This document shows, piece after piece, positions 37,831-49,362 of a stretch of 64,000 bases of DNA. Source of the stretch: Betaproteobacteria bacterium CG2_30_68_42 (lineage in GTDB: Bacteria > Pseudomonadota > Gammaproteobacteria > Burkholderiales > Rhodocyclaceae); NCBI GenBank assembly GCA_001872285.1, contig MNXU01000051.1:107-64106 (forward strand). The letters are read 5' to 3'. Every line of letters begins with the position of its first letter. The stretch's first letter is position 1. Made by a program: the position numbers and the translations under genes. The notes below the pieces were generated by a model. The model was not told where the DNA came from. It made no database searches and was given only the letters and a program-made list of their open reading frames with translations.

Positions 37831-37844
37831 TTGATTCGCATCAA
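37831..37844 (+). promoter_or_regulatory. perfect FNR/CRP-family box TTGAT-TCGC-ATCAA
   Basis: Exact TTGAT-N4-ATCAA. A TAAAGT -10-like hexamer at 37866-37871 fits a class II (-41.5) arrangement. 131 nt upstream of the 37975 ATG. Confidence 0.55.
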
Positions 37845-37974: not shown

Positions 37975-39783
37975 ATGTCGGGCGCAGCCTTGCTCGGGCC
38001 GCCGCAGTCTGGCGCGCAGCCCACGGAGGCGCGGGAGGAGATCGTTTCGGTCGACCCGCGCGACATCGCCTGGGTACACCAGAACGTACCGTGCCAGAGC
38101 GCCTGTCCGGCCGGCACCAACGTCCCGGCCTACATCCGCCAGATCGTCGAGGAGCACTACGGCCGCTCCTACGAGACGAACCGCGAGGCCAATGTGCTGC
38201 CGGGCGTGCTCGGGCGCATCTGCTCGCGGCCGTGCGAGGCCGCGTGCCGGCACGGTTGGCCGGGCAACGGCGAGCCGGTCGCGATCTGCCACCTGAAGCG
38301 GGTGGCGGCCGACATGAAGGACTCAGGGCACCGCATCACCGAGAGGCTCTACGCCCCCACCGGCAAGCGGGTGGCGATCGTCGGCGCGGGACCGGCCGGG
38401 ATCGCCGCCGCGCATGACCTCTCGCTGCTCGGCCACGACGTGACGATCCTGGAACGCGAGGAGCGCGCGGGCGGCATGCTGCGCTACGGCATCCCGGAGT
38501 TCCGCCTGCCGCGCGGCGTCCTCGACGTCGAGCTTCACAACGCGCTGCGGCTGGGCGCGCAGATGCACACCGGCGTGGAAGTGGGCAAGGAACACGGGCA
38601 GACGCCGATCGCGCAGCTCCTCCGCGAATATGACGCGGTCCTGCTCGCGACCGGCTGCATGGCGGCCAGTCCGCTTCCGCTTCGCGGCCGCTGGGAGAAG
38701 GAGGATCTCGCGGGCGCCTGCGCAGACGTCGAATACGGTCTCGATTTTCTGATGGATCTGCACCGCGGTCGCAAGAAGCGGGTGGGCAAGCGCGTCGCGG
38801 TAGTCGGCGCGGGTTTCACCGCGCTCGACTGCGCGCGGATGGCGGTTCGCCTCGGGGGCAAGGAGGTCGTCATCCACATCCGCACCGCCGAGGAGTACAT
38901 TCCGGTCGCGAAGGAGGAGATCTTCGAGGCCAAGCGCGAAGGCATCCGCATCCGCGGCCTGCGCACGCCGGTGGGGCTCCAGGTCGACGAGACGGGACGG
39001 CTCACCGGCGTCGAGTTCGTCCAGAACCGGCTCGGCGGCTGGCGCGCCAAGGGCCGGCGGCAGGCGATTCCGATCGAGGGCTCGGAATTCGTCGAGCCCT
39101 GCGACACGATCATCGTCGCGATCGGCCAGCAGACCGTGAACGACCATCTCGACGTCAAGCTCGATCTCGACCGCTGGGGCAACGTCCGGATCGGCGAGAA
39201 CGGCATGACCTCGAACGCCGGATTGTTCGCGGCCGGCGACTATGTGCGCGGCGCTTCCACCGCGATCGAGGCGGTCGGGCACGGGCGCGAGCTCGCGCGG
39301 AAGATGGACGCCTGGCTGATGGGCCGCGAGCGGCGCAGGACGGTGGTGCGCATCACGCCGGTCGAGCGCCCGTTGCGCAGCCGCGCGTTCGATTTCATCG
39401 TCCGGCAGCACATGCCCACGGCGGCGCTCGCCGCACGCGATCAGCGGCGCGAGGTCGAACTCGGCTACGCGCCGACCGACGCGCTCGAAGAGGCCAAGCG
39501 CTGTTACCTCTGCAACCTGCGCTACGAGATCGACGTGGATCGCTGCATCTTCTGCCGCGCGTGCATCGATGTCGCGCCGCGCAACTGCATCAAGATGGTC
39601 GACGGCGTGGAGCGGGGCGAGGACGCATCGATCCGCAAGCTCACCGAGACGCGTGACTGGAGCCAGGTCGCGGCGATCTGGATCGACAACAACGAGTGCA
39701 TCCGCTGCGGGCAGTGCTATACCGCCTGCCCGGTGAAGTGCATCTCGATCTCACGCTGCGAACTGGTCGACGCGGACGTCTGA
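37975..39783 (+). CDS. GltD-like NAD(P)H-dependent oxidoreductase with C-terminal 2x[4Fe-4S] ferredoxin domain (KorC-like subunit of NADP-reducing 2-oxoglutarate oxidoreductase)
   Basis: 602 aa. CQSACPAGTNVP...CSRPCEAACRHG...RVAIVGAGPAGIAAAHDL...GGMLRYGIPEFR. The C-terminus carries CIFCRACIDVAP and CIRCGQCYTACP. Confidence 0.85.
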   Translation: MSGAALLGPPQSGAQPTEAREEIVSVDPRDIAWVHQNVPCQSACPAGTNVPAYIRQIVEEHYGRSYETNREANVLPGVLGRICSRPCEAACRHGWPGNGEPVAICHLKRVAADMKDSGHRITERLYAPTGKRVAIVGAGPAGIAAAHDLSLLGHDVTILEREERAGGMLRYGIPEFRLPRGVLDVELHNALRLGAQMHTGVEVGKEHGQTPIAQLLREYDAVLLATGCMAASPLPLRGRWEKEDLAGACADVEYGLDFLMDLHRGRKKRVGKRVAVVGAGFTALDCARMAVRLGGKEVVIHIRTAEEYIPVAKEEIFEAKREGIRIRGLRTPVGLQVDETGRLTGVEFVQNRLGGWRAKGRRQAIPIEGSEFVEPCDTIIVAIGQQTVNDHLDVKLDLDRWGNVRIGENGMTSNAGLFAAGDYVRGASTAIEAVGHGRELARKMDAWLMGRERRRTVVRITPVERPLRSRAFDFIVRQHMPTAALAARDQRREVELGYAPTDALEEAKRCYLCNLRYEIDVDRCIFCRACIDVAPRNCIKMVDGVERGEDASIRKLTETRDWSQVAAIWIDNNECIRCGQCYTACPVKCISISRCELVDADV

Positions 39784-39786
39784 ATC

Positions 39787-40830
39787 ATGGGAAACCCATC
39801 ACGCCATCACATCGTCATCGGCAGCGGAGTGGCGGGCAGCCAGGCCGCGGCCACCCTGCGCGAACGCGAACCCGACAGCCGAATCTCCATCCTGACGCTC
39901 TCCAGCCTGCTCTTCTACAACCGCTACGACCTGCCCAAGGTGTTCCGCGGGGTGCGCGACTGGCGCGAGTTCCTGGTGCAGCCGCCGGAGTATTACGAGA
40001 ACAACCGGATCGGCGTGCGGCGTCTGAACCGCGTCGCGGCCGTGGACTCCGCGCGGCGGGTGATCGTCCTCGACCACAAGGAGGAGGTTGCCTTCGACAC
40101 GCTGCTGGTGGCTTCCGGCGGGCGCGGCTACGTTCCCGAGGAGCTCACCGACTATCGTGCGCTGATGCATCCATTCTCCAGCTATACCGAGGCGCTGCGC
40201 ACGGCCAACGCGCTGCCCGAGGGCGGGCATGCGATCCTGCTGGGGGGAGACATGATCGGCCTGGACCTCGCCCGCACGCTGATCGACACCGGTCACCAGG
40301 TCACGCTCATCGCGGACGATCACGCCTTCTGGCCGCATGAGGTCGAGGACGCGGAGCGCGCCGGTTTCCTCGCCGCGCTCGACCACATGGGCATGCGTGT
40401 CATCGACGGGCGTGCGGCCGGCGGCATCGCGGCCGTCGAGGCCGGCGCGAAGGGACTTTCGGCGCGCCGCGTCGCGCTCGCAGACGGCAGCGAGGTTCGC
40501 GGCGATGTCGTCATGCCCTTTTTCGGGCTCACGCCCTCGGTGGAGTTCATGCTCGGATCGGGAGTTGACATCGAGCGCGGGCTGCTGGTCACGCCGGGGC
40601 TGCGCACCACCGACGAGGCGATCTGGGCCGCCGGCGACGTCTGCCAGATCTGGTCGGACGAGGTGCACCGCTACCGCTTCTTCTACGGGTGGAAGAATGT
40701 CCGTGCGATGGGCGAGCTGGCGGCGCGCAACATGACTGGCGCGGACGACCCCTGGGTGAGCGTGCAGGACGAGCATCTGCGCCTGACGCCCGAGGGCGCG
40801 ATCCATTCTCCGTTCTGGGAATACCAATGA
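39787..40830 (+). CDS. FAD-dependent pyridine-nucleotide-disulfide-oxidoreductase-family protein (short; degenerate second dinucleotide motif)
   Basis: 347 aa. HIVIGSGVAGSQAA is the FAD GxGxxG. The second motif reads AILLGGDMIGLDLA, with Asp where the middle Gly is expected. Starts 3 nt after the previous gene, and has an ATGA overlap with korA. Confidence 0.8.
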   Translation: MGNPSRHHIVIGSGVAGSQAAATLREREPDSRISILTLSSLLFYNRYDLPKVFRGVRDWREFLVQPPEYYENNRIGVRRLNRVAAVDSARRVIVLDHKEEVAFDTLLVASGGRGYVPEELTDYRALMHPFSSYTEALRTANALPEGGHAILLGGDMIGLDLARTLIDTGHQVTLIADDHAFWPHEVEDAERAGFLAALDHMGMRVIDGRAAGGIAAVEAGAKGLSARRVALADGSEVRGDVVMPFFGLTPSVEFMLGSGVDIERGLLVTPGLRTTDEAIWAAGDVCQIWSDEVHRYRFFYGWKNVRAMGELAARNMTGADDPWVSVQDEHLRLTPEGAIHSPFWEYQ

Positions 40831-42638
40831 AGGCCATGAGCACCGATATCCAGATTGCGATCTGCGGGAGCGCGGGAGACGGGACGATCGCCGCCGGCGA
40901 GATCCTGCGCAACGTGATGGCCGGTCTCGGCTACAAGGTCATCGCGTTCGACGTCTATCCGCCCGAGATTCGCGGCTTCGGCAAGTGCATCGCGCGCATG
41001 CGCGTCACCACCGAGCAGGCCTACTCGCTCAAGCCGCAATCGGACGTCCTGATCTCGCTCGACGACAGCCATGCGATTCCCCATGTCGGCGAAGTCCGCG
41101 ACTACGGCGCCGTGATCTACGAACGCGGCTCGATCGTGCAACTCGCCGAGGGCGGCCACATCAGCGCACATGTGCGCCCGGCCCAGTTGCCCTATGCGGT
41201 GCCGCTGCGCGAGCTGTCCGAGAAATCCACCAGCTCCAACCGCTCGCGCAACATCGTCGCTCTCGGTTTCCTGGCCGGTCTGTGCGGGCTGCAGGAAGAC
41301 ACCTTTCTGAACGCGCTTTCGCGCAAGTTCAAGAAGAAGCCGGAAGTCGCAGAGAGCGCGCAGAGCGCGTTCCGCGCAGGCTATGCGGAGAGCGCGGACA
41401 CGTTCAAGCTCGACGACGTGGTGTTCGGTCCGGTGCCGAAGGCCCCGGTTGCGGCCGGCTCGGCGGTGGAGATGATGAACGGCAACGCAGCGGTCGTACG
41501 CGGCTGCCTCGATGCCGGCATCGAGAACTACTTCGGCTACCCGATCACCCCCGCGACCTCGATCATGGAGCGACTCGCGCTGGAGATGCCGAAGCGCGGC
41601 GCGCGCCTGCTGCAGACCGAGGACGAGATCGCTGCGATCTCGGCCACCGTGGGCGCCGGCTTCGCGGGTGCACGCGCCGCCACCGCAACCTCCGGTCCGG
41701 GGTTCTCGCTGATGACCGAGATGCTCGGGCTCGGGGTCATCGCCGAGGTGCCCTGCGTGATCTTCGTCTCCCAGCGCGGGGGGCCCTCCACCGGCATGCC
41801 GACCAAGACCGAGCAGTCCGACCTGCACATCGCGGTGTACGGCGGCCATGGCGACGCCCAGCGGATCGTCATCGCGCCCACCAATGTCGAAGGCTGCTAC
41901 CGTTGCGCGGGCAAGGCGTTCGAGATGGCGGAGCGCTACCAGACGCCGGTCGTCGTGCTGCTCGATCTCTACCTCTCGAACCGTTACGAGACGGTCGTCT
42001 TCCCGGCGCGCCCGCCGTTCGCTCCCAACCAGTCGAAGGCGCCCGAGAAGGACCAGCTCGGCGACGCCTACCGCCGCTATGCCCTGACCGGCGACCTGAT
42101 CAGCCCCCGCACCGTGCCCGGCGACAAGGACGGCATGTACGTCGCCACCGGGCTCGAGCACAACGAGCTGGGCCGGCCGAATGATCAGCCGCAGAACCAC
42201 GAGGCGCAGAGCCGCAAGCGGCACGAGAAGCTCAAGGCCGCGCTCGCCCATCCCGACTTCACCCACTACAAGCGCTTCGGCGACGAGGGCGCGGTCGATG
42301 TCGGCATCATCGGCTGGGGCTCGAATTTCGGGGAGTGCCTGGAGGCGATGATCAAGGCGCGTGCCGAAGGCATCCGCTGCGCGGCGATGAAGGTCGTCAT
42401 GATCTCGCCCTTCCCGGTCGCGGGAGTGACCGGATTCATGGACCAGTGCCGCGAGGTGCTCGTGCCGGAGGTCAATTACGAGGGCCAGTTCGCCAATGTG
42501 CTCCAGGCCAATGTCGGCCGGCCGGTGGCGCGGCTCAACCGGGTGCCCGGCGCCCCGATGGCGGTCGGCGACATCCTCGAAGAAGTACGCCGGCTGGCTG
42601 CACGCGCGCGGCGCGGGCACGAGAAGGCGGCGGCGTGA
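40827..42638 (+). CDS. korA: 2-oxoglutarate:ferredoxin oxidoreductase subunit alpha (fused gamma-alpha, two-subunit type)
   Basis: ATG at 40827. 603 aa. IAICGSAGDGTIAAGEIL... then GYPITPATSIMERL...SGPGFSLMTE. Confidence 0.9.
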   Translation: MKAMSTDIQIAICGSAGDGTIAAGEILRNVMAGLGYKVIAFDVYPPEIRGFGKCIARMRVTTEQAYSLKPQSDVLISLDDSHAIPHVGEVRDYGAVIYERGSIVQLAEGGHISAHVRPAQLPYAVPLRELSEKSTSSNRSRNIVALGFLAGLCGLQEDTFLNALSRKFKKKPEVAESAQSAFRAGYAESADTFKLDDVVFGPVPKAPVAAGSAVEMMNGNAAVVRGCLDAGIENYFGYPITPATSIMERLALEMPKRGARLLQTEDEIAAISATVGAGFAGARAATATSGPGFSLMTEMLGLGVIAEVPCVIFVSQRGGPSTGMPTKTEQSDLHIAVYGGHGDAQRIVIAPTNVEGCYRCAGKAFEMAERYQTPVVVLLDLYLSNRYETVVFPARPPFAPNQSKAPEKDQLGDAYRRYALTGDLISPRTVPGDKDGMYVATGLEHNELGRPNDQPQNHEAQSRKRHEKLKAALAHPDFTHYKRFGDEGAVDVGIIGWGSNFGECLEAMIKARAEGIRCAAMKVVMISPFPVAGVTGFMDQCREVLVPEVNYEGQFANVLQANVGRPVARLNRVPGAPMAVGDILEEVRRLAARARRGHEKAAA

Positions 42639-42761
42639 GCAGGGAGCAGGGGCCCCGCGTAGCGGGGATGCGACCGCCCGCGAGCGCCGCCGAGCCGCCG
42701 ACGGTGCGCGGGTCGATCTGCGAAGTGGGTTCGGAGGCGGCAGCATGATGGAGGAATTGCG

Positions 42762-43661
42762 ATGAGTACCGTGATGAAGCCGATCTACGTCGAAGACAAG
42801 CTCAGGGAAGTGCGCGAGAGCGGGCGGCTCGCTTTCCGTTCGCGGACGCTGCCCACCTGGTGTCCGGGCTGCGGCTATTTCTCCATCGAGGAAGGGCTGA
42901 CCTGGGCGCTCAACGACCTGGGCGTCGCCAACAAGGACATCGTGGTGGTGTCGGGGATCGGCTGCGCTTCGCGTTTTCCCTTCTTCGTGAATGCGTACGG
43001 GTTTCACACCCTGCACGGGCGGGCGTTGCCCACCGCCACCGGGGTCAAGCTGGCCAACGAGGCGCTCACCGTCGTCGCCGTGGGCGGCGACGGGGACGGC
43101 TTCGCGATCGGCGGCGCGCATCTCTCGCATGCCGCGCGGCGCAACGTCGACATCACCTACCTGCTGATGGATAACGGCATCTACGGCCTGACCAAGGGGC
43201 AGACCTCGCCCACCTCCGTGGTCGGTTTCCGCACATCGACCTCGCCCTATGAAAACCTGGACCGCCCGCTCAACCCGCTGTTGATGATGTTGTCCTACGG
43301 TGCGAGCTGGGTCGGCAGGTCCTACGCGGGCGAGCCGAATCACCTGCGCGGCATGATCCGCGAGGCGCTCGCCCACCGCGGATTCTCCTATCTGCACATC
43401 CTTTCGCCGTGCGTGACCTTCGACAAGACCAGCAAGACCTACGTCAATCTGGGCATGCAGGTCGAGGCGCTGCCCGAGACGCACGATCCCGCCGATCTCG
43501 CCGGAGCGATGCGCATCGCGATGGACACCGAGCGGCTCGCGCTCGGCCTGTTTTATAGCGAGCTGCGCCCGACGCTCGGCGACAACATGGACGAGCTCGT
43601 GGCGCGGGCGAGCGGCCCGCCGGCGGCCAGGCCGAAGAAGGCCGCCGGCGGAAGGCGCTGA
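42762..43661 (+). CDS. korB: 2-oxoglutarate:ferredoxin oxidoreductase subunit beta (TPP-binding)
   Basis: SD GGAGGAA. 299 aa. WCPGCGYFSI...SGIGCASRFP...GGDGDGFAIGGAHLSHAARRNVDITYLLMDNGIYGLTKGQ. Confidence 0.9.
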   Translation: MSTVMKPIYVEDKLREVRESGRLAFRSRTLPTWCPGCGYFSIEEGLTWALNDLGVANKDIVVVSGIGCASRFPFFVNAYGFHTLHGRALPTATGVKLANEALTVVAVGGDGDGFAIGGAHLSHAARRNVDITYLLMDNGIYGLTKGQTSPTSVVGFRTSTSPYENLDRPLNPLLMMLSYGASWVGRSYAGEPNHLRGMIREALAHRGFSYLHILSPCVTFDKTSKTYVNLGMQVEALPETHDPADLAGAMRIAMDTERLALGLFYSELRPTLGDNMDELVARASGPPAARPKKAAGGRR

Positions 43662-43679
43662 GCGCAGGCGCCGCCCGCA

Positions 43680-45305
43680 TCAGATCTGCTCCGCGACCAT
43701 GCGGATCGCGCCGCACGGACACTCGGCGGCGCAGATCCCGCAACCCTTGCAGTAGTCGTAGTTGAAGCGGAAGCGCTTGCCCGGCCCGAGCTTGATCACC
43801 GCGTTGTCCGGGCACACGCCGTAGCAGTTGTCGCACTCGAAGCAGTTGCCGCAGGACAGGCAGCGGCGCGCCTCGAACAGCGCATTGCCCTCGTCCAGCC
43901 CGCCGACCACCTCGTCGAAGGTGGACTGGCGCCGCAGGATGTCGAGCACCGGGCGCACGGTCTTGGGCGCGTCCGAGTAGTACCAGGTGTTGAGCTTGTC
44001 GAAGCTCGCCAGTTCGTGTCGGGGCGCGAGCTGGCGGGCGGTGCCGCGCAGCCATGCGTCGATGTTGCGGGCCGCCTTTTTTCCGTGGCCGATCGCGACG
44101 GTGACGGTGCGCTCCGAAGGCACCATGTCGCCGCCTGCGAACACCCCCGGATAGCCGGTCATCAGGTGGGAGTCCACCTTGACGACGCCGTCCCGGATCT
44201 CGAGGTCCGGAACGCCCTGGAGCAGCGACAGGTCGACGTCCTGGCCGAGTGCCAGCACCAGCGAATCGGCCTCCAGGGTCTCGAATTCCCCGGTCGGCTG
44301 CGGGAATCCCTTGTCGTCGAGGCGCATCTTCTCGACCACGATGCGGCCCTCGTCGGCCTGCCGGATCGTCGACAGCCATTTCATCATCACGCCCTCCTGG
44401 AGCGCCTCCTCGACCTCGAAGTCGTGGGCCGGCATGCGCTCGCGGGTGCGGCGATAGACCAGGATCGCCTCCTCGGCGCCGAGCCGCCGTGCGGTGCGGG
44501 CGACGTCGATTGCGGTGTTGCCGCCGCCGTAGACCACGACCCGCCGCCCGAGCAGCGGCTGGTCCTCGCCCTCCATGCTGCGCAGGACCGAGACCGCGTC
44601 GAGGATGCGCGAGGAGTCGCCCGCCGGAATGTAGGCGCGCTTCGCGATGTGGGCGCCGACCGCGAGGAAGGCCGCGTCGAAGCGGCCCGCGCGCATCGTC
44701 TCCAGCAGGTCGTCCACCTTGGCGTTCAGTACGAGCTTCACGCCGAGGTCGAGAATGCGGGCGATCTCCGCGTCCAGCACCTCGCGCGGCAGCCGGTATT
44801 GCGGGATGCCGAAGCGCATCATGCCGCCGGCAAGCGGACCCGCCTCGTGGATCTCGACCGCGTGCCCGAGCGTGCGCAGGTGGTAGGCCGCGGAGAGCCC
44901 GGAAGGGCCCGCGCCCACCACGAGCACACGCCTGCCGCTCGTCGGCGCACCGTGTGCGAAGCGCCAGCCGCGCCGGATCGCCTCGTCGCCCAGGAATCTC
45001 TCCACCGCGTTGATGGCGACGGATTCGTCCAGCCGGCCGCGGTTGCAGGCGCCCTCGCAGGGGTGGTAGCAGACGCGGCCCATGATCGCGGGCAGGGGAT
45101 TGTTCTTCACCAGCTCGCGCCAGGCCGCCTCGTAGTCGCCGGACTCGGCGTGGTAGAGCCAGCCCTGGATGTTCTCTCCGGCGGGACAGGCGTGGTTGCA
45201 CGGCGGCAGCCGATCGACATATTCCGGCCGCGAGGTGCGCCACGACCCGGTGCGGTTGGCGAGCGAGGAACCGGGGTCCAGCGTGATCGCGAACGGTTTT
45301 TCCAT
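43680..45305 (-). CDS. fused PorD-like / GltD-like NAD(P)H oxidoreductase / 2x[4Fe-4S] subunit of a four-subunit-type 2-oxoacid oxidoreductase
   Basis: 541 aa. The N-terminus PGSSLANRTGSWRTSRPEY is delta-subunit-like. CNHACPAGENIQ...CYHPCEGACNRG...RVLVVGAGPSGLSAAYHL...GGMMRFGIPQYR. The C-terminus carries CLSCGNCFECDNCYGVCP and CKGCGICAAECP. Confidence 0.85.
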   Translation of the reverse strand: MEKPFAITLDPGSSLANRTGSWRTSRPEYVDRLPPCNHACPAGENIQGWLYHAESGDYEAAWRELVKNNPLPAIMGRVCYHPCEGACNRGRLDESVAINAVERFLGDEAIRRGWRFAHGAPTSGRRVLVVGAGPSGLSAAYHLRTLGHAVEIHEAGPLAGGMMRFGIPQYRLPREVLDAEIARILDLGVKLVLNAKVDDLLETMRAGRFDAAFLAVGAHIAKRAYIPAGDSSRILDAVSVLRSMEGEDQPLLGRRVVVYGGGNTAIDVARTARRLGAEEAILVYRRTRERMPAHDFEVEEALQEGVMMKWLSTIRQADEGRIVVEKMRLDDKGFPQPTGEFETLEADSLVLALGQDVDLSLLQGVPDLEIRDGVVKVDSHLMTGYPGVFAGGDMVPSERTVTVAIGHGKKAARNIDAWLRGTARQLAPRHELASFDKLNTWYYSDAPKTVRPVLDILRRQSTFDEVVGGLDEGNALFEARRCLSCGNCFECDNCYGVCPDNAVIKLGPGKRFRFNYDYCKGCGICAAECPCGAIRMVAEQI

Positions 45306-45322
45306 GGCTCGGGTTCCCGTGC

Positions 45323-46321
45323 TCAGTCGGTCGAATCGAGCAGGCCGTAGCGGCGGATGTTGCGATCGGCGATTTCCTGAAGCCCCGCGATGATGTCGAT
45401 GCGCGGGGGCCTGCCGAACAGATGGGCGAAGCGCTTCTGCGGCCGGAGGTACTCCTCCACCGGAACCGGCTTGCGGATTTTCGACACGCCGGTGACCTCC
45501 CCATCCTCGGCCTCGAACACCGGGAACAGGCCGGTTTCCCTGGCGAGCCGCGCGATGCGGATGGTCTCGTGCGAGCCATGGCCCCAGCCGACCGGGCAGG
45601 GCACCAGGATGTGCAGGTAGCGTGCGCCGTGGAAGCTCATGGCGCGCGCGACCTTGTATTCGAGATCGCGCAGGTCGGCCACCGTCGCGGTGGCGACATA
45701 GGGGATCCCGTGCGCCATCGCGATCCGGGGCAGATCCTTGCCCTGGCCGAAGCAGTTGCCCGGCTGCGGGCCGACCGCCATCGTGGTCGCGGTGCGCGCG
45801 CCGGGCGGGGTCGCCGAGGAGCGCTGCACGCCGGTGTTCATGTAGGCTTCGTTGTCGTAGCAGATGTACAGGACATCGTCATTGCGCTCGAACATCCCCG
45901 ACAGGCAGCCGAAGCCGATGTCGGTGGTGCCGCCGTCGCCGCCCTGCGCCACCACGCGGACCTCGGCATGGCCCTTCACCTTCAGCGCGGCGGCGATGCC
46001 GGTCGCGACCGCCGCGGCGTTTCCGAACACCGAGTGGATCCAGGGAATCTGCCACGAGGTCTCCGGATACGGCGTCGAGAACACCTCGAGGCAGCCGGTC
46101 GCGTTCGCAGCGATCAGGCGGTTGCCGGTCGAGCGCATCGCGGCGTCGATCGCGTAGCGCGCGCCGAGCGCCTCGCCGCAACCCTGGCAGGCGCGGTGTC
46201 CGGAGTTGAGCGAGTTGATCCGGGCCATGTCGGCCTGGACGCTGCGCTCCTCGGGCGCGAGCAGGCGATTGCCGACGGTGAAGGTGCCGGTCTGGTAGAA
46301 CTTGACGGGTTGAAACGCCAT
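45323..46321 (-). CDS. 2-oxoacid:ferredoxin oxidoreductase subunit beta (TPP-binding)
   Basis: 332 aa with SD GGAGG. GHRACQGCGEAL...GGDGGTTDIGFGCLSGMFERNDDVLYICYDNEAYMNTGVQ. Confidence 0.9.
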   Translation of the reverse strand: MAFQPVKFYQTGTFTVGNRLLAPEERSVQADMARINSLNSGHRACQGCGEALGARYAIDAAMRSTGNRLIAANATGCLEVFSTPYPETSWQIPWIHSVFGNAAAVATGIAAALKVKGHAEVRVVAQGGDGGTTDIGFGCLSGMFERNDDVLYICYDNEAYMNTGVQRSSATPPGARTATTMAVGPQPGNCFGQGKDLPRIAMAHGIPYVATATVADLRDLEYKVARAMSFHGARYLHILVPCPVGWGHGSHETIRIARLARETGLFPVFEAEDGEVTGVSKIRKPVPVEEYLRPQKRFAHLFGRPPRIDIIAGLQEIADRNIRRYGLLDSTD

Positions 46322-46339
46322 CCTCGCCTCCGAGAATTT

Positions 46340-46421
46340 GGGGTCAGTTCTTTACTTTATAGTTTTTCCGAAACCGGCATATGCTGAAGGCATCGAGACT
46401 ATAAAGTAAAGAACTGACCCC
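46340..46421. repeat. 82-bp AT-rich perfect hairpin / MITE-like element (24-bp perfect inverted repeat, 34-nt loop)
   Basis: GGGGTCAGTTCTTTACTTTATAGT (46340-46363) is the exact reverse complement of ACTATAAAGTAAAGAACTGACCCC (46398-46421). The arms are 9/24 G+C in a high-GC genome. It lies in the 113-nt spacer between the alpha and beta genes. Confidence 0.9.
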
Positions 46422-46434
46422 GCTGTCGGGCCGC

Positions 46435-47688
46435 CTACGCGATGCGCGCGGCGACCACGCCGATGTCGCGCAGCACGTTCTCTGCGATCGGGCCGCTGCG
46501 CCGGGTGCGCCGCTCGCGCTCGAGCGCGCGCTCGACCACGGCACGGTCCAGGTCGAGGAAGCCGAGGGCCGGCAGACTGCCGTCGACGCCCGCGCGCACC
46601 ATCGCGGCGAGCGAGCTGCGCGTGATCGCGCGCCCGCCCAGACCGGCGATCACGGCATGCACGGCGACGGCGAACCCGGCGAGCGCGGTGCGCACGTTGG
46701 TGGCCACGATGCCGCCGATGCCCACCGCGAGGCTCTTCTCCAGCACCACCACGCAGCGGGCGTCCCGCAATGCCTCGCGCACCGCTTCCATCGGCCACGG
46801 GCGGAAGCAGCAGATGCCGAGCACGCCGGCGCGAATTCCGGCCTCGCGCAGTTCGTCGATCACGTCCTTGATCGTGCCGAGCACGGAGCCGAGGGCCACC
46901 ACGACGATCTCCGCATCCTCGCTGCGATAGCCGCGCACGAGCCCGCCGGCATCGCGACCGAAGATCTCGCGGAACCCCAGCGCATACTCCGGGATGCGCT
47001 CCAGTGCCATCATCTGTTTCGCGTGGGCGAGGTAGCGCACTTCCATGAACGCCTCGGGGCCGACCATTGCGCCGATCGACACCGGCTCGTGCACGTCGAG
47101 CACCTGGCGCGGCTCGTAGGCGGGCAGATAGGCATCCACCTGCCGCGCCTCGGGGATGTCGACGCGCTCGAAAGCGTGGGTGAGGATGAAGCCGTCCATG
47201 CACACCATCACCGGAACCGAGAGTTCCTCGGCGAGCCGGAACGCCTGGATGTGGAGATCGAGCGCTTCCTGGTTGGTCTCCGCGAAGAGCTGGATCCAGC
47301 CGCAATCGCGCTGGCTCATCGCATCGCCATGGTCGTTCCAGATGTTGATCGGCGCGCCGATCGCCCGGTTTGCCACCGTCATGACGATCGGCAGGCCCAG
47401 GCCGGCGGCGTTGTACAGCGCCTCGACCATGAACAGCAGCCCCTGGCTCGCGGTGGCCGTGTAGGCGCGCGCCCCCGCGGCGCAGGCGCCGATCGCCACG
47501 CTCATCGCGGCGAATTCGCTCTCGACGTTGATGAACTCGCAGCCGCCCAGCCGGCCTGACTTCACCATCTCGCCGAGCGCCTCGACGATATGCGTCTGCG
47601 GGGAGATCGGATAGGCGCAGATCACCTGCGGCCGGCACAGGGCGACCGCTTCGGCGACCGCCCGGGAACCTTCCATCTGGTCAAGCAT
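46435..47688 (-). CDS. 2-oxoacid:ferredoxin oxidoreductase subunit alpha
   Basis: 417 aa. GSRAVAEAVALCRPQVICAYPISPQTHIVE...TATASQGLLFMVEAL. Confidence 0.9.
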   Translation of the reverse strand: MLDQMEGSRAVAEAVALCRPQVICAYPISPQTHIVEALGEMVKSGRLGGCEFINVESEFAAMSVAIGACAAGARAYTATASQGLLFMVEALYNAAGLGLPIVMTVANRAIGAPINIWNDHGDAMSQRDCGWIQLFAETNQEALDLHIQAFRLAEELSVPVMVCMDGFILTHAFERVDIPEARQVDAYLPAYEPRQVLDVHEPVSIGAMVGPEAFMEVRYLAHAKQMMALERIPEYALGFREIFGRDAGGLVRGYRSEDAEIVVVALGSVLGTIKDVIDELREAGIRAGVLGICCFRPWPMEAVREALRDARCVVVLEKSLAVGIGGIVATNVRTALAGFAVAVHAVIAGLGGRAITRSSLAAMVRAGVDGSLPALGFLDLDRAVVERALERERRTRRSGPIAENVLRDIGVVAARIA

Positions 47689-48265
47689 GAGCGCTCGCCT
47701 CCTTCATCTCGGCCTTGACGATGCCGTACGCCTCGCTGGCGGCGGCGACATTGCCCTCCGCGATCTTGCCCGAAAAGCGCCGGCGGATCGCGGCGATCAC
47801 CGACTCCAGGCCGAGGATGCCCGAGATCGCGGCGAAGCCTCCGAGCAGCGGCACGTTGGGCACCGCGCGCCCGACATGTTTCAGGGCGAGTTCGGTCGCC
47901 GCGACGGTGCACAGGTGCTCGGGATGCCAGCCCCGCAAGAGCTCGCCGATGCCCAGCTCGTCGAAGCTGCGGTTGGTGTTGATCAGGATGTAGCCGTCCC
48001 GCTTCACGCCCGCGAACACGTCGACCTGGTGCAGCAGCGTGGGGTCCTGGATGATGAGGGCATCCGGCTCGATGATCGGCTCGCGCAGGCGGATTTCCTT
48101 GCGGTCGATGCGGCAGAACGCCACCACCGGCGCCCCGGTGCGCTCCGAGCCGAAGCTCGGAAAGGCCTGCGCGTACTCTCCTTCGAGGAAGGCCGCGACC
48201 GAGAGCATCTCGGCGCCGGTCACCACGCCCTGGCCGCCGCGGCCATGGATTCTCACCTGGAACAT
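47681..48265 (-). CDS. 2-oxoacid:ferredoxin oxidoreductase subunit gamma
   Basis: ATG at 48265-48263 within ORF 47681..48304. MFQVRIHGRGGQGVVTGAEML is typical of a gamma subunit. 8-nt overlap with the alpha gene. Confidence 0.85.
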   Translation of the reverse strand: MFQVRIHGRGGQGVVTGAEMLSVAAFLEGEYAQAFPSFGSERTGAPVVAFCRIDRKEIRLREPIIEPDALIIQDPTLLHQVDVFAGVKRDGYILINTNRSFDELGIGELLRGWHPEHLCTVAATELALKHVGRAVPNVPLLGGFAAISGILGLESVIAAIRRRFSGKIAEGNVAAASEAYGIVKAEMKEASAHA

Positions 48266-48447
48266 GATCGATTCCCGAGTGCGCTGTGTCCGCGAAGATA
48301 CCACCGCCGCGGTGCTCCCGCGCGCATGCGACGGCGCGGGAGTCGCGCAGCCGTGCGTGACGAGTTCCGCGACGCGGGTCGCGGTTTGCCGTTAGCATTG
48401 CACGCCCATCCCGGCGCCTCGCCGGAGCGTGGTACGCGCATCCCGCG

Positions 48448-49362
48448 ATGAACGCAGCCCCCCACACCGATCTCGATCTCGATTCTCTCCGCGCTTTCGT
48501 GGCGGTGACGCAGACCCGTGGGCTCGCGGCCGCCGGGGCGCTCCTCGACCGCAGCGGGGCGGCGGTCGGGCTGCGGGTGAGAAAGCTCGAGGCCCGGCTG
48601 GGCCAGGCGCTGCTGCGGCGTTCCGGCCGCGCCCTGGTTCCGACCCGCCACGGCGAGGTCCTGCTCGAATATGCCAGACGTATCCTGTCGCTGAGCGAGG
48701 AGGGGGTACGTGCCCTGTGCGCTTCCGGACTCTCGGGAGAGGTCCGCCTCGGAGTCACGGAGCACTTCTTTCCCCAATGCCTGCCGGAAGTCATCGCGCG
48801 CTTCGCGCGTGGCCAGCCCGAACTGTCGATTTCCATACGCACCGGCCTGACGCTCGACCTGCTGCGGCTCCAGCGCGAGGGTAGGCTCGATCTGGTCATC
48901 GGCCTGCGCACGGCTCCCGCGCGCGAGGGCAGGACCATGTTCCGCGAGCCGCTGTGCTGGGTTGCCCAGCATGGCTTCGTCCTGGACCGCTGCGAGGTGG
49001 TCCCGCTGCTCGCGCTGCCCGATCCGTGCATCCACCGTGCGGCCGCCACCGATGCGCTGACGCGGGCGGGACGGGCCTGGCGGGTGTGCTATGCGGCCGG
49101 GAGCGTGCTCGCCCTGCAGGCGGCGGTGGCGTCCGGCCTGGGCGTCGCCTGCCTTCCGCTGTCCAGCGTGCAGGCGAGCATGCGCATTCTGGGGCGCCAG
49201 GAAGGGCTTCCGGCACTCGGCGACTGCGATGTCGCGGTCTATGCGCTCGCCCACGGCGCCGGGGATCGCTTCGGCCGGCTTCTGGAACTGATCCGGGTCG
49301 GCCTGCCCATCCTTTCCATCGAGGTGATGAGCGCTGGCGGCGGGCTGGCCGCGGCAGCCTAG
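48448..49362 (+). CDS. LysR-family transcriptional regulator
   Basis: 304 aa. LDSLRAFVAVTQTRGLAAAGALLDRSGAAVGLRVRKLEARLG is the HTH. Divergent from the four-subunit oxidoreductase operon. Confidence 0.9.
   Translation: MNAAPHTDLDLDSLRAFVAVTQTRGLAAAGALLDRSGAAVGLRVRKLEARLGQALLRRSGRALVPTRHGEVLLEYARRILSLSEEGVRALCASGLSGEVRLGVTEHFFPQCLPEVIARFARGQPELSISIRTGLTLDLLRLQREGRLDLVIGLRTAPAREGRTMFREPLCWVAQHGFVLDRCEVVPLLALPDPCIHRAAATDALTRAGRAWRVCYAAGSVLALQAAVASGLGVACLPLSSVQASMRILGRQEGLPALGDCDVAVYALAHGAGDRFGRLLELIRVGLPILSIEVMSAGGGLAAAA

Follow-up and report, generated by a model that had tools for sequence, protein, structure and literature searches.

How does a four-subunit 2-oxoacid oxidoreductase hand on its electrons when a flavoprotein has been inserted into its delta subunit? 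This question is raised by an operon on the minus strand (43680-48265) of a 64,000-nucleotide stretch of contig MNXU01000051.1 from Betaproteobacteria bacterium CG2_30_68_42, referred to here as the window. The open reading frame map and the translations place four co-directional genes in the order porC-porA-porB, followed by a gene for a 541-amino-acid fusion protein. By its sequence, this last protein is a delta subunit of the PorD type that holds within it an NfnB/DsrL-type module with sites for two [4Fe-4S] clusters, flavin adenine dinucleotide (FAD) and NAD(P)H. In our reading the operon probably specifies a pyruvate:NADP+ oxidoreductase, a heterotetramer-type enzyme in which PorC, PorA, PorB and the modified delta subunit would pass electrons internally to NADP+.

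The operon and its split delta subunit

A sequence-only reading of the window had described a minus-strand operon of gamma, alpha and beta subunits with a 541-residue fusion protein, and all of its features were found:

47681-48265, minus strand: porC-like gene, gamma subunit; 194 amino acids from the ATG at 48265, where the family models begin
47681-48304, minus strand: longest open reading frame of the porC-like gene, starting at a GTG at 48304
46435-47688, minus strand: porA-like gene, alpha subunit; 417 amino acids with POR_N and PFOR_II domains (Pfam)
45323-46321, minus strand: porB-like gene, beta subunit; 332 amino acids with a TPP_enzyme_C domain (Pfam)
43680-45305, minus strand: fusion gene, 541 amino acids; stop codon at 43680-43682

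The porC and porA genes overlap by 8 nt within ATGCTTGA, with GAAGGAGG preceding the porA start. A spacer of 113 nt lies between porA and porB, and the fusion gene follows porB at a distance of 17 nt. The porC product matches the Pfam family POR (PF01558) with 130 bits and TIGR02175 (PorC_KorC) with 198 bits against a cut-off of 81. For the other subunits, comparison was made with the archaeal pyruvate oxidoreductase (POR) in PDB entry 9bt4, the subunit make-up of which points to the enzyme of Methanosarcina acetivorans (Cossu et al. 2024) as its most likely identity. Aligned to chains 9bt4_B and 9bt4_C, the alpha and beta subunits have the CxxC...C and GDG/NTG motifs. The PorB-like protein, which is the subunit that binds thiamine pyrophosphate (TPP) and the proximal [4Fe-4S] cluster, has an N-terminal extension of about 36 residues relative to 9bt4_C. 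The gamma, alpha, beta and delta parts of a four-subunit 2-oxoacid:acceptor oxidoreductase of the POR or 2-oxoisovalerate oxidoreductase (VOR) type are thus all encoded, with the delta split by an insert of about 450 residues.

In the fusion protein, Pfam assigns residues 34-113 to Fer4_20, residues 126-408 to Pyr_redox_2 and the C-terminus to a dicluster domain. Profile matches and structural alignments divide it as follows:

45207-45305, minus strand: residues 1-33, PorD N-terminal arm (TGSWRTSRPEY), from the PorD_Arch match and the alignment with 9bt4_G
44031-45206, minus strand: residues 34-425, NfnB/DsrL-like core, from Fer4_20, Pyr_redox_2 and the alignment to 4ylf_B and 5jca_L
43863-44030, minus strand: residues 426-481, linker with a permuted 'FDEV...EARR' segment leading into C482/C485, from the NfnB alignment
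43683-43862, minus strand: residues 482-541, C482xxC485 and the PorD dicluster ferredoxin domain, from TIGR02179 and PorD_Arch

The two ends of the protein belong to PorD. Taken alone, the N-terminal PGSSLANRTGSWRTSRPEY stretch matches positions 4-30 of the PorD_Arch profile (E 1.5e-5), and the arm aligns with residues 3-30 of 9bt4_G. At the other end, residues 482-540 form a PorD-type dicluster domain (TIGR02179, 67.6 bits for the whole fusion against a cut-off of 60), the ligands of which are C488/491/494/498 and C519/522/525/529 in alignment with residues 32-84 of 9bt4_G. These parts were joined in silico, residues 1-33 to residues 478-541 with residues 34-477 removed, and the chimera was compared with chain 9bt4_G and the PorD profiles. 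It aligned over residues 3-84 of the 85 in this chain (E 4.6e-21, 55% identity) and passed TIGR02179 (PorD_KorD) with 79 bits against the cut-off of 60. This match to an archaeal PorD of known structure from one end to the other makes the fusion a PorD with an insert of about 450 residues at the junction of arm and ferredoxin domain. Two earlier claims, that the protein opens like a delta subunit and closes with two 4Fe-4S motifs, hold up on these data: the arm alone and the excised chimera both match PorD, and the C-terminal domain has eight cysteines and a TIGR02179 score above cut-off. As a whole, the fusion is a full-length member of NCBIfam NF009410/PRK12771, with 772 bits against a cut-off of 516 over model positions 20-565 of 566.

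What, then, is the insert? It was aligned with NfnB of T. maritima (4ylf_B) and NfnI-L of P. furiosus (5jca_L). The core holds the ligands C36, C40, C79, C83, C87 and E102 as well as FAD and NAD(P)H Rossmann domains, with C36 corresponding to C47 of NfnB, C40 to C51, C79, C83 and C87 to C90, C96 and C100, and E102 to E117. The remaining two ligands are found further along the chain, where residues 459-486 (FDEV...EARRCLSCG) align with residues 16-43 at the N-terminus of NfnB and C482 and C485 correspond to C39 and C42. All eight cluster ligands of NfnB are therefore present, in the sets C482/C485/C36/C87 and C40/C79/C83/E102. The segment that supplies the first two cluster ligands stands after the FAD domain, which makes the module circularly permuted relative to NfnB and GltD. 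The flavin and NAD(P)H module of the sequence-only reading thus stands, but its label as GltD-like is better replaced by NfnB/DsrL-like and circularly permuted, given that C482 and C485 are supplied by the C-terminal segment. Within one CxxCxxCxxCxxCxxxCP run, C485 ends the ligands of the distal cluster and C488, three residues further on, begins those of the PorD domain, a closeness which argues for a continuous electron wire.

The nucleotide site also has a recognizable signature. Y284-R285-R286 (YRR) aligns with the NADP-phosphate site of NfnB (4ylf_B) and NfnI (5jca_L), and in work on DsrL this motif serves to tell enzymes that use NADP(H) from those that use NAD(H) (PMC7596348). From the YRR motif, NADP(H) is predicted to be the pyridine nucleotide of the fusion. 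With eight ligands, FAD and NAD(P)H Rossmann folds and YRR, the protein has the full set of cofactor sites of an NfnB/GltD-type iron-sulfur (Fe-S) flavoprotein. Its AlphaFold2 model has a mean predicted local distance difference test score (pLDDT) of 83.9, with low values at residues 456-466. In a Foldseek search this model matched 5jca_L with a root mean square deviation of 2.7 over 431 columns, 9bov_A with an E of 2e-45, and also 8oh5_C; the last two are the best PDB matches of the fusion both by sequence and by fold.

Conservation, probable substrate and proposed electron path

Species-representative genomes were scanned with the fusion, and 80 loci with homologues 60-81% identical were obtained. 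The carriers include Gallionella, Rhodocyclaceae, Accumulibacter, Sulfurisoma, Rubrivivax, Aquabacterium, Rhodoferax and Sutterella relatives among the Betaproteobacteria, Azospirillum, Magnetovibrio and Dongia among the Alphaproteobacteria, Competibacter among the Gammaproteobacteria, and Solirubrobacterales, Gaiellaceae, Gleimia and Varibaculum among the Actinobacteria. The family keeps 60-80% identity across phyla and is present in cultured strains such as Sulfurisoma sediminicola (L026), Aquabacterium humicola (L039), Rubrivivax sp. A210 (L030) and Azospirillum formosense (L063), so that the hypothesis is directly testable. An even sample of the phylum gave a close homologue in 59 of 401 genomes and 20 of 212 genera. 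Gene order was counted in the 68 loci whose upstream sequence extends for at least 3.1 kb. In 66 of these, spread over Beta-, Alpha- and Gammaproteobacteria and Actinobacteria, the fusion gene was directly preceded by porC, porA and porB on the same strand and in the same order. As the operon lacks a separate porD gene, the fusion is its only source of medial and distal clusters. All 16 cluster ligands, the YRR motif and the arm residues G20 and R23 are invariant in 45 of 45 por-linked orthologues.

Natural gene fusions tell a similar story. In a library of representatives at 50% identity, some single chains begin with PorC and continue as the fusion protein (P0156, P0171 and P0189), and in others an IOR-like POR_N/TPP unit is joined to an NfnB-like module (P0212, P0242 and P0261). 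The list of single-chain fusions also holds P0267, and the partner types in it are PorC, IOR-like POR_N/TPP and a DHO_dh domain. The PorC, IOR-like and DHO_dh fusions point to a module that has been recruited repeatedly as an NAD(P)H adaptor. A four-subunit-type 2-oxoacid oxidoreductase with a flavin and pyridine-nucleotide module in its delta subunit, as had been proposed, is what the split PorD, the conserved ligands and NADP motif, the synteny and the PorC single-chain fusions bear out.

The two exceptions to the gene order are both from Competibacter (L087:6824-13469 and L089), where the homologue of the fusion, 60-61% identical, is not beside porCAB. The 61%-identical flavoprotein gene instead stands 140 nt upstream of a NifJ-type pyruvate:ferredoxin oxidoreductase (PFOR) with a TIGR02176 score of 1767 bits against a cut-off of 911. 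A dihydroorotate-dehydrogenase-like gene (PRK07565) comes after this PFOR gene. Among the loci there was otherwise no conserved flanking gene that would reveal a pathway. The commonest neighbour is phosphoenolpyruvate (PEP) synthase, at 8 loci, and in several Solirubrobacterales loci a gene for PEP synthase or a pyruvate, water dikinase-like protein lies directly upstream of porC on the same strand (at L088 with an overlap of 7 nt). In the one Accumulibacter genome searched, the por operon holds the only PorA homologue.

Which 2-oxoacid does the enzyme use? The sequence-only reading held that this cannot be read from the sequence, a view that the comparisons do not sustain. In place of an alpha and beta tree, the substrate class was judged by NCBIfam profile scores and comparison with the PDB. 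The best model for PorA is PorA_Arch with 448 bits, as against 288 for VorA, 264 for PadG and 254 for OOR-alpha. PorB scores 326 bits with NF008819 versus 283 with VOR-beta and 189 with PadI, PorC does best with the POR gamma equivalog NF006321 (204 bits, cut-off 225), and the delta chimera reaches 88 and 72 bits with PorD models versus 55 with VOR-delta. Pyruvate models are thus the best in all four subunits. The OAFO_sf and KorA models reach no more than 108 and 91 bits, where their cut-offs are 483 and 579. The proteins also stay far below the equivalog cut-offs of the phenylglyoxylate oxidoreductase PadEFGHI (PadG 264 against 700, PadI 189 against 700, PadE 135 against 300). A complete PadEFGHI operon with scores above those cut-offs (PadI 829, PadG 721 and PadH 575 bits) is found elsewhere in the genome, at C11:14043-18726, and KorAB is encoded separately as well. 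In the PDB, PorA is closest to 9bt4_B (374 bits, 52% identity), followed by oxalate oxidoreductase (214) and the single-chain PFORs (113); for PorB the values are 303 bits and 51% identity with 9bt4_C, then 209 and 68. The substrate loop of the alpha subunit, MTVANRA..APINIWNDH.D, is identical to that of 9bt4_B and corresponds in the alignment to the Arg114/Ile123 region of D. africanus PFOR, the residues of which are assigned to pyruvate binding. Scores remain below the equivalog cut-offs, so pyruvate specificity is deduced by comparison and not by family assignment. Given 51-55% identity to 9bt4, the identical substrate loop and the Competibacter flavoprotein beside a NifJ-type PFOR, it is quite likely that pyruvate is the main substrate.

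How would electrons travel through such an enzyme? The predicted reaction is pyruvate + CoA + NADP+ -> acetyl-CoA + CO2 + NADPH. Pyruvate would be decarboxylated on TPP in PorA/PorB, and its electrons would enter the proximal [4Fe-4S] cluster of PorB. From there they would pass through the two [4Fe-4S] clusters of the PorD ferredoxin domain (fusion residues 488-529) to the 'distal' NfnB-type cluster, held by C482/C485 together with C36 and C87, then to the 'proximal' NfnB-type cluster at C40, C79, C83 and E102, on to FAD, and finally to NADP+ at YRR 284-286. Contact with PorA/PorB would be made, in the manner of ordinary four-subunit enzymes, by the PorD arm (residues 1-33) and the C-terminal ferredoxin domain, with the flavoprotein of about 450 residues projecting from the site where a soluble ferredoxin normally binds. 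The pyruvate/acetyl-CoA+CO2 couple has a potential of about -500 mV and NADP+/NADPH one of about -320 mV. By these textbook values NADP+ would be a strongly exergonic acceptor, and the oxidative direction is therefore expected, with the formation of acetyl-CoA and NADPH as the presumed physiological role.

Several observations weigh against a pyruvate:NADP+ oxidoreductase. The canonical gene order of four-subunit enzymes is porC-porD-porA-porB (PMC13768988), whereas in the window and in 66 of 68 related loci it is porC-porA-porB followed by the split delta. A biochemical characterization of a por-linked PRK12771 protein was not found in the literature searched, the coverage of which is incomplete. 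The nearest structural relatives of the flavin module are electron-bifurcating enzymes, and a more complex redox role is possible. The Competibacter PFOR has its own ferredoxin domain, so that the flavoprotein seems able to serve as a separate partner as well, rather than as an obligate subunit. PorA (NF040682), PorB and PorC all miss the pyruvate equivalog cut-offs (448 against 550, 326 against 405 and 204 against 225), which marks the clade as divergent and leaves room for a different range of substrates. For VOR, the substrate comparison was made with profile models. Finally, evidence of RNA from the organism in situ is thin, consisting of low-depth unstranded contigs.

How well do other explanations account for the operon? 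Its architecture and NADP(H) coupling could be as described while the substrate is a different 2-oxoacid (2-oxoisovalerate or another branched-chain acid, 2-oxobutyrate or a glyoxylate-type acid) or a broad range of them; we hold this to be unlikely, though by no means negligible. The VOR-type models do score well (VorA 288, VOR-beta 283 bits), and the catalytic subunits are under the pyruvate cut-offs, but pyruvate models beat those for VOR, Pad and OOR in all four subunits and the substrate loop in alpha is that of a solved POR. The N-terminal extension of about 36 residues in PorB, which 9bt4_C does not have, would be consistent with another substrate, as would the fact that characterized four-subunit PFORs commonly take 2-oxobutyrate and other acids (Table 1, PMC13768988). 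The genomic associations argue for pyruvate: in Competibacter a true NifJ PFOR accompanies the homologue, PEP synthase adjoins several loci, and in Accumulibacter the only PorA homologue of the genome searched belongs to an enzyme that the literature calls PFOR (PMC5148189). A rather improbable alternative is a POR that is mainly linked to ferredoxin or flavodoxin, with a flavin module that runs in reverse or conditionally, either feeding electrons from NADPH into the Fe-S chain (as an aid to pyruvate synthesis, or to keep the clusters reduced) or sharing them between ferredoxin and NADP+. The 2-oxoglutarate oxidoreductase (KGOR) of Azoarcus evansii is said to reduce both ferredoxin and NADP+, and the Competibacter flavoprotein is the separate partner of a complete PFOR. 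By textbook potentials, however, pyruvate synthesis on NADPH alone is strongly endergonic, and the flavin module would occupy the ferredoxin docking site on PorD in an operon that holds no ferredoxin gene. The alternative would fit with DsrL enzymes, which work in both directions in vitro (PMC7596348), and with work on Accumulibacter in which 'PFOR' is tied to H2 production through ferredoxin (PMC5148189).

There is a very slim chance that the flavin is a bifurcating or confurcating center, as in NfnAB, NfnABC and StnABC, that couples the POR chain and NADP(H) to a third redox partner. Subunits of bifurcating enzymes are the best matches by sequence and fold (9bov_A, 8oh5_C, 9n5u_A, 5jca_L and 4ylf_B), but an NfnA-like, NuoE-like or NuoF-like partner is neither encoded in the operon nor conserved nearby, and a single Fe-S path leads from the FAD. 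The same module is used without bifurcation by DsrL (PMC7596348), and by GltD and dihydropyrimidine dehydrogenase (DPD). Were such a flavin to act with an unseen partner, the POR could become reversible on NADPH and allow pyruvate synthesis from acetyl-CoA and CO2 in an aromatics degrader, an outcome for which we see a slim chance. A redundant isoenzyme of KGOR or phenylglyoxylate oxidoreductase serving the neighboring benzoyl-CoA pathway is extremely unlikely. The operon does adjoin a KorAB-type operon and is about 19 kb from a putative bzd-type cluster, and locus L054 of another genome also has both operons side by side; set against this, it occurs in many genomes with unrelated surroundings, the alpha and beta models specific for 2-oxoglutarate give only 91 and 44 bits, and PadG (264) and PadI (189) are well short of the cut-offs of 700 in a genome with the true PadEFGHI on contig C11. 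The KGOR reading was rejected on the profile scores and the presence of dedicated KorAB-type operons, and the phenylglyoxylate reading on the Pad scores and the true operon. A pyruvate:NADP+ oxidoreductase remains the probable function.

Junction, regulation and genome context

The surroundings of the por operon add the following features:

43662-43679, no strand assigned: spacer of 18 nt between the convergent stops of korB (43659-43661) and the fusion gene (43680-43682)
43617-43672, no strand assigned: two GC-rich hairpins at this junction, from RNA folds of both strands
46340-46421, no strand assigned: element of the repetitive extragenic palindromic (REP) kind in the porA-porB spacer, a perfect 24-bp inverted repeat with a 34-nt loop and the arm GGGGTCAGTTCTTTACTTTATAGT
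48266-48447, no strand assigned: divergent intergenic region of 182 nt between porC and the LysR-family gene
48448-49362, plus strand: LysR-family gene, divergent from porC; 304 amino acids with HTH_1 and LysR_substrate domains (Pfam)

The distance of 18 nt that had been given for the two stops is exact. A consensus scan of the korB/fusion junction gave no intrinsic terminator, in agreement with the earlier claim that no terminator hairpin lies there; as to hairpins in general the claim needs a qualification, because two GC-rich ones do fold at this place. One is a perfect 12-bp GC stem (43617-43628/43640-43651) inside the 3' end of korB, and the other a 6-bp stem (43654-43659/43667-43672) spanning the korB stop and part of the spacer. 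Both are without a U tract, and their folding energies are not clearly better than those of shuffled sequence (z -1.96 and -0.91). The divergent LysR gene is likewise present as noted before. Its best NCBIfam match is LrhA, with 156 bits against a cut-off of 530. The suggestion that it points to substrate-specific induction fares less well, as the 66 syntenic loci were all without a homologue of it in front of porC. The convergent korB arrangement was seen in no other locus examined; the only other one with a Kor-type operon nearby is L054, where it is co-directional with the por operon. Since neither the LysR gene nor the convergent layout is conserved, both are local features. A pattern scan of 48266-48447 upstream of porC found no FNR-type box. 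The only perfect TTGAT-N4-ATCAA (FNR-type) box in the window is at 37831-37844, before the plus-strand Kor operon.

RNA from this region was sought in Logan contigs. Two aquifer metatranscriptomes contain contigs identical to the window at 43414-43813, which crosses the junction, at 43836-43986 and at 47020-47196. The LysR gene is covered nearly end to end (48412-49308) by identical metatranscriptome contigs, with fragment ends at 48412 and 48418. These contigs are unstranded and have a depth of about 3-6, and the one that spans the junction shows only that RNA, or trace DNA, exists across it. Transcriptional interference or antisense overlap, which the sequence-only reading drew from the facing operons, may occur there; the RNA bearing on it is this one contig. 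Adapter sequence directly adjoins the fragment end at 48418, an indication of a transcript 5' end some 30 nt before the LysR ATG.

The REP-like element belongs to a family within the genome, where its arm is found 50 times (with at most 2 mismatches) over 16 contigs, with many of the copies in clusters on contig C48. Relatives do not have it at the porA-porB site: their spacers measure about 15-60 nt, and their contigs skip the element. The stability of the mRNA, or polarity from porA to porB, may be influenced by it.

The genome itself (3.1 Mb on 95 contigs, 99.97% complete) is tied to aquifer and groundwater metagenomes, and its nearest named relatives are Rhodocyclaceae metagenome-assembled genomes. 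The plus-strand neighbor of the por operon (37975-43661) encodes a 602-residue GltD-like protein with a C-terminal ferredoxin domain, a 347-residue Pyr_redox_2 protein, KorA and KorB. The 602-residue protein is about 31% identical to the fusion and below the PRK12771 cut-off. At L054, homologues of the first three genes of this Kor operon (59-70% identical) stand beside the por operon, and the available sequence ends within the KorA match. A second KorAB is encoded on contig C5. The genome also has a second PRK12771 member, a true DsrL of 666 residues on contig C81:46000-62000 (L009), in a cluster with dsrM/dsrK/dsrL/dsrO/dsrP/dsrN-like genes, so this aquifer bacterium combines Dsr-type sulfur metabolism with anaerobic degradation of aromatics. 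Contig C3:1451-6397 encodes a 1648-residue NifJ-like protein that matches the PFOR model over its first 830 or so residues only (388 bits against a cut-off of 911); with long insertions and an extra C-terminal ferredoxin-like tail, it is an atypical single-chain 2-oxoacid:ferredoxin oxidoreductase (OFOR). An AceE-type pyruvate dehydrogenase E1 was not found in the genome (best match 32 bits), and alpha/beta-type 2-oxoacid dehydrogenase E1 and E2 genes are on C81, C18 and C56.

Comparison with known systems

NAD(P)-linked OFORs are already known in the A. evansii KGOR, in PadEFGHI and in the eukaryotic pyruvate:NADP+ oxidoreductase (PNO), each of which has another flavoprotein or another mode of attachment. 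The PorD-flavoprotein architecture is widespread in bacteria and has apparently never been characterized biochemically, being usually read as a ferredoxin-linked enzyme. Names of the fusion family in the databases are generic ('NAD(P)-binding protein', '2-oxoacid:acceptor oxidoreductase delta subunit', 'GltD-like'). In the literature on Accumulibacter the operon is taken for a PFOR of three genes that is linked to ferredoxin and feeds hydrogenase (PMC5148189), and a review of PFOR diversity dated November 2026 does not mention a flavin- or NADP-binding delta subunit (PMC13768988). If our reading is correct, many bacteria would turn pyruvate into acetyl-CoA and make NADPH directly, without free ferredoxin. 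Among them would be the wastewater phosphate and glycogen accumulators Accumulibacter and Competibacter, iron and sulfur oxidizers, Azospirillum, gut Sutterella relatives and Actinomycetaceae, and redox balances would change in those metabolic models that now use a ferredoxin-linked 'PFOR' with hydrogenase (PMC5148189). A permuted flavoprotein inserted within the delta subunit would also be a new way of wiring an OFOR.

The closest solved relative is the archaeal POR 9bt4. Its gamma, alpha, beta and delta parts all recur in the window enzyme, with identities of 52% in alpha, 51% in beta and 55% in the delta arm and ferredoxin domain, and its TPP and cluster motifs match. The window enzyme differs from it in gene order, with porC-porA-porB ahead of the delta gene, in the FAD/NADP(H)/2x[4Fe-4S] insert of about 450 residues, and in its predicted acceptor, which would be NADP+ instead of ferredoxin.

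For residues 31-492 of the fusion, the best matches are NfnB, the A subunit of NfnABC, and StnC (4ylf_B, 5jca_L, 9bov_A, 8oh5_C), which share its ligands, FAD and NADP(H) domains and YRR motif; 9bov_A and 8oh5_C also have an 'RCxxC' segment after the FAD domain. Whereas those proteins partner with NfnA or NuoEF-like subunits in flavin-based bifurcation, the window module is embedded in PorD and no such partner is encoded.

DsrL, an NAD(P)H:acceptor oxidoreductase of dissimilatory sulfur metabolism (Loffler et al. 2020, PMC7596348), is a PRK12771 protein with the same order of domains, a permuted NfnB-like core, a linker and a C-terminal dicluster ferredoxin. The fusion has this domain order and comes from a genome that carries dsr genes, but its gene is the last of a porCAB operon, unlike DsrL, which partners DsrAB, and the dsr-linked copy is separate on C81. 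The latter is 40% identical to the fusion and keeps the C-terminal CxxCxxCxxCxxCxxxCP run; it lies in the dsr cluster, has no YRR, and its GWSHKCPTY is only weakly similar to the PorD arm (GSWRTSRPEY). Homologues linked to por genes were seen in the DsrL study and deliberately excluded from it (PMC7596348). The weak resemblance to a PorD arm at the N-terminus of DsrL hints that DsrL may have arisen from a fusion of PorD with a flavoprotein.

In PadEFGHI, an NADH-dependent phenylglyoxylate dehydrogenase, as in the window enzyme, a four-subunit core of the POR/VOR type is coupled to pyridine nucleotide by an added flavoprotein. There, however, PadH is a separate protein of the ferredoxin-NAD reductase type, and PadI carries extra clusters. 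The KGOR of A. evansii, the subject of work by Ebenau-Jehle, Boll and Fuchs in 2003, reportedly has a GltD-like Fe-S flavoprotein subunit that couples it to NADP+. Both enzymes would combine an OFOR core with an NADP+-reducing Fe-S flavoprotein of the GltD/NfnB-like kind, whereas the KGOR is said to have a two-subunit core of the KorAB type, a separate flavoprotein without a PorD arm, and 2-oxoglutarate as its substrate. With its POR-type core the por operon of the window does not belong to this class, into which the neighboring plus-strand operon fits. The A. evansii enzyme is cited as KGOR-alpha in PMC10134865.

The predicted net reaction is also that of a eukaryotic enzyme, the PNO of Euglena gracilis and Cryptosporidium (Rotte et al. 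2001, cited in PMC13768988), in which a flavoprotein that reduces NADP+ is likewise attached to a PFOR. The two enzymes differ in flavoprotein family, in fusion point and in subunit structure. PNO is a single chain made of a NifJ-type PFOR and a C-terminal, cytochrome-P450-reductase-like FMN/FAD domain. If the predicted activity is correct, the operon of the window would encode a bacterial and independently evolved counterpart of the eukaryotic pyruvate:NADP+ oxidoreductase.

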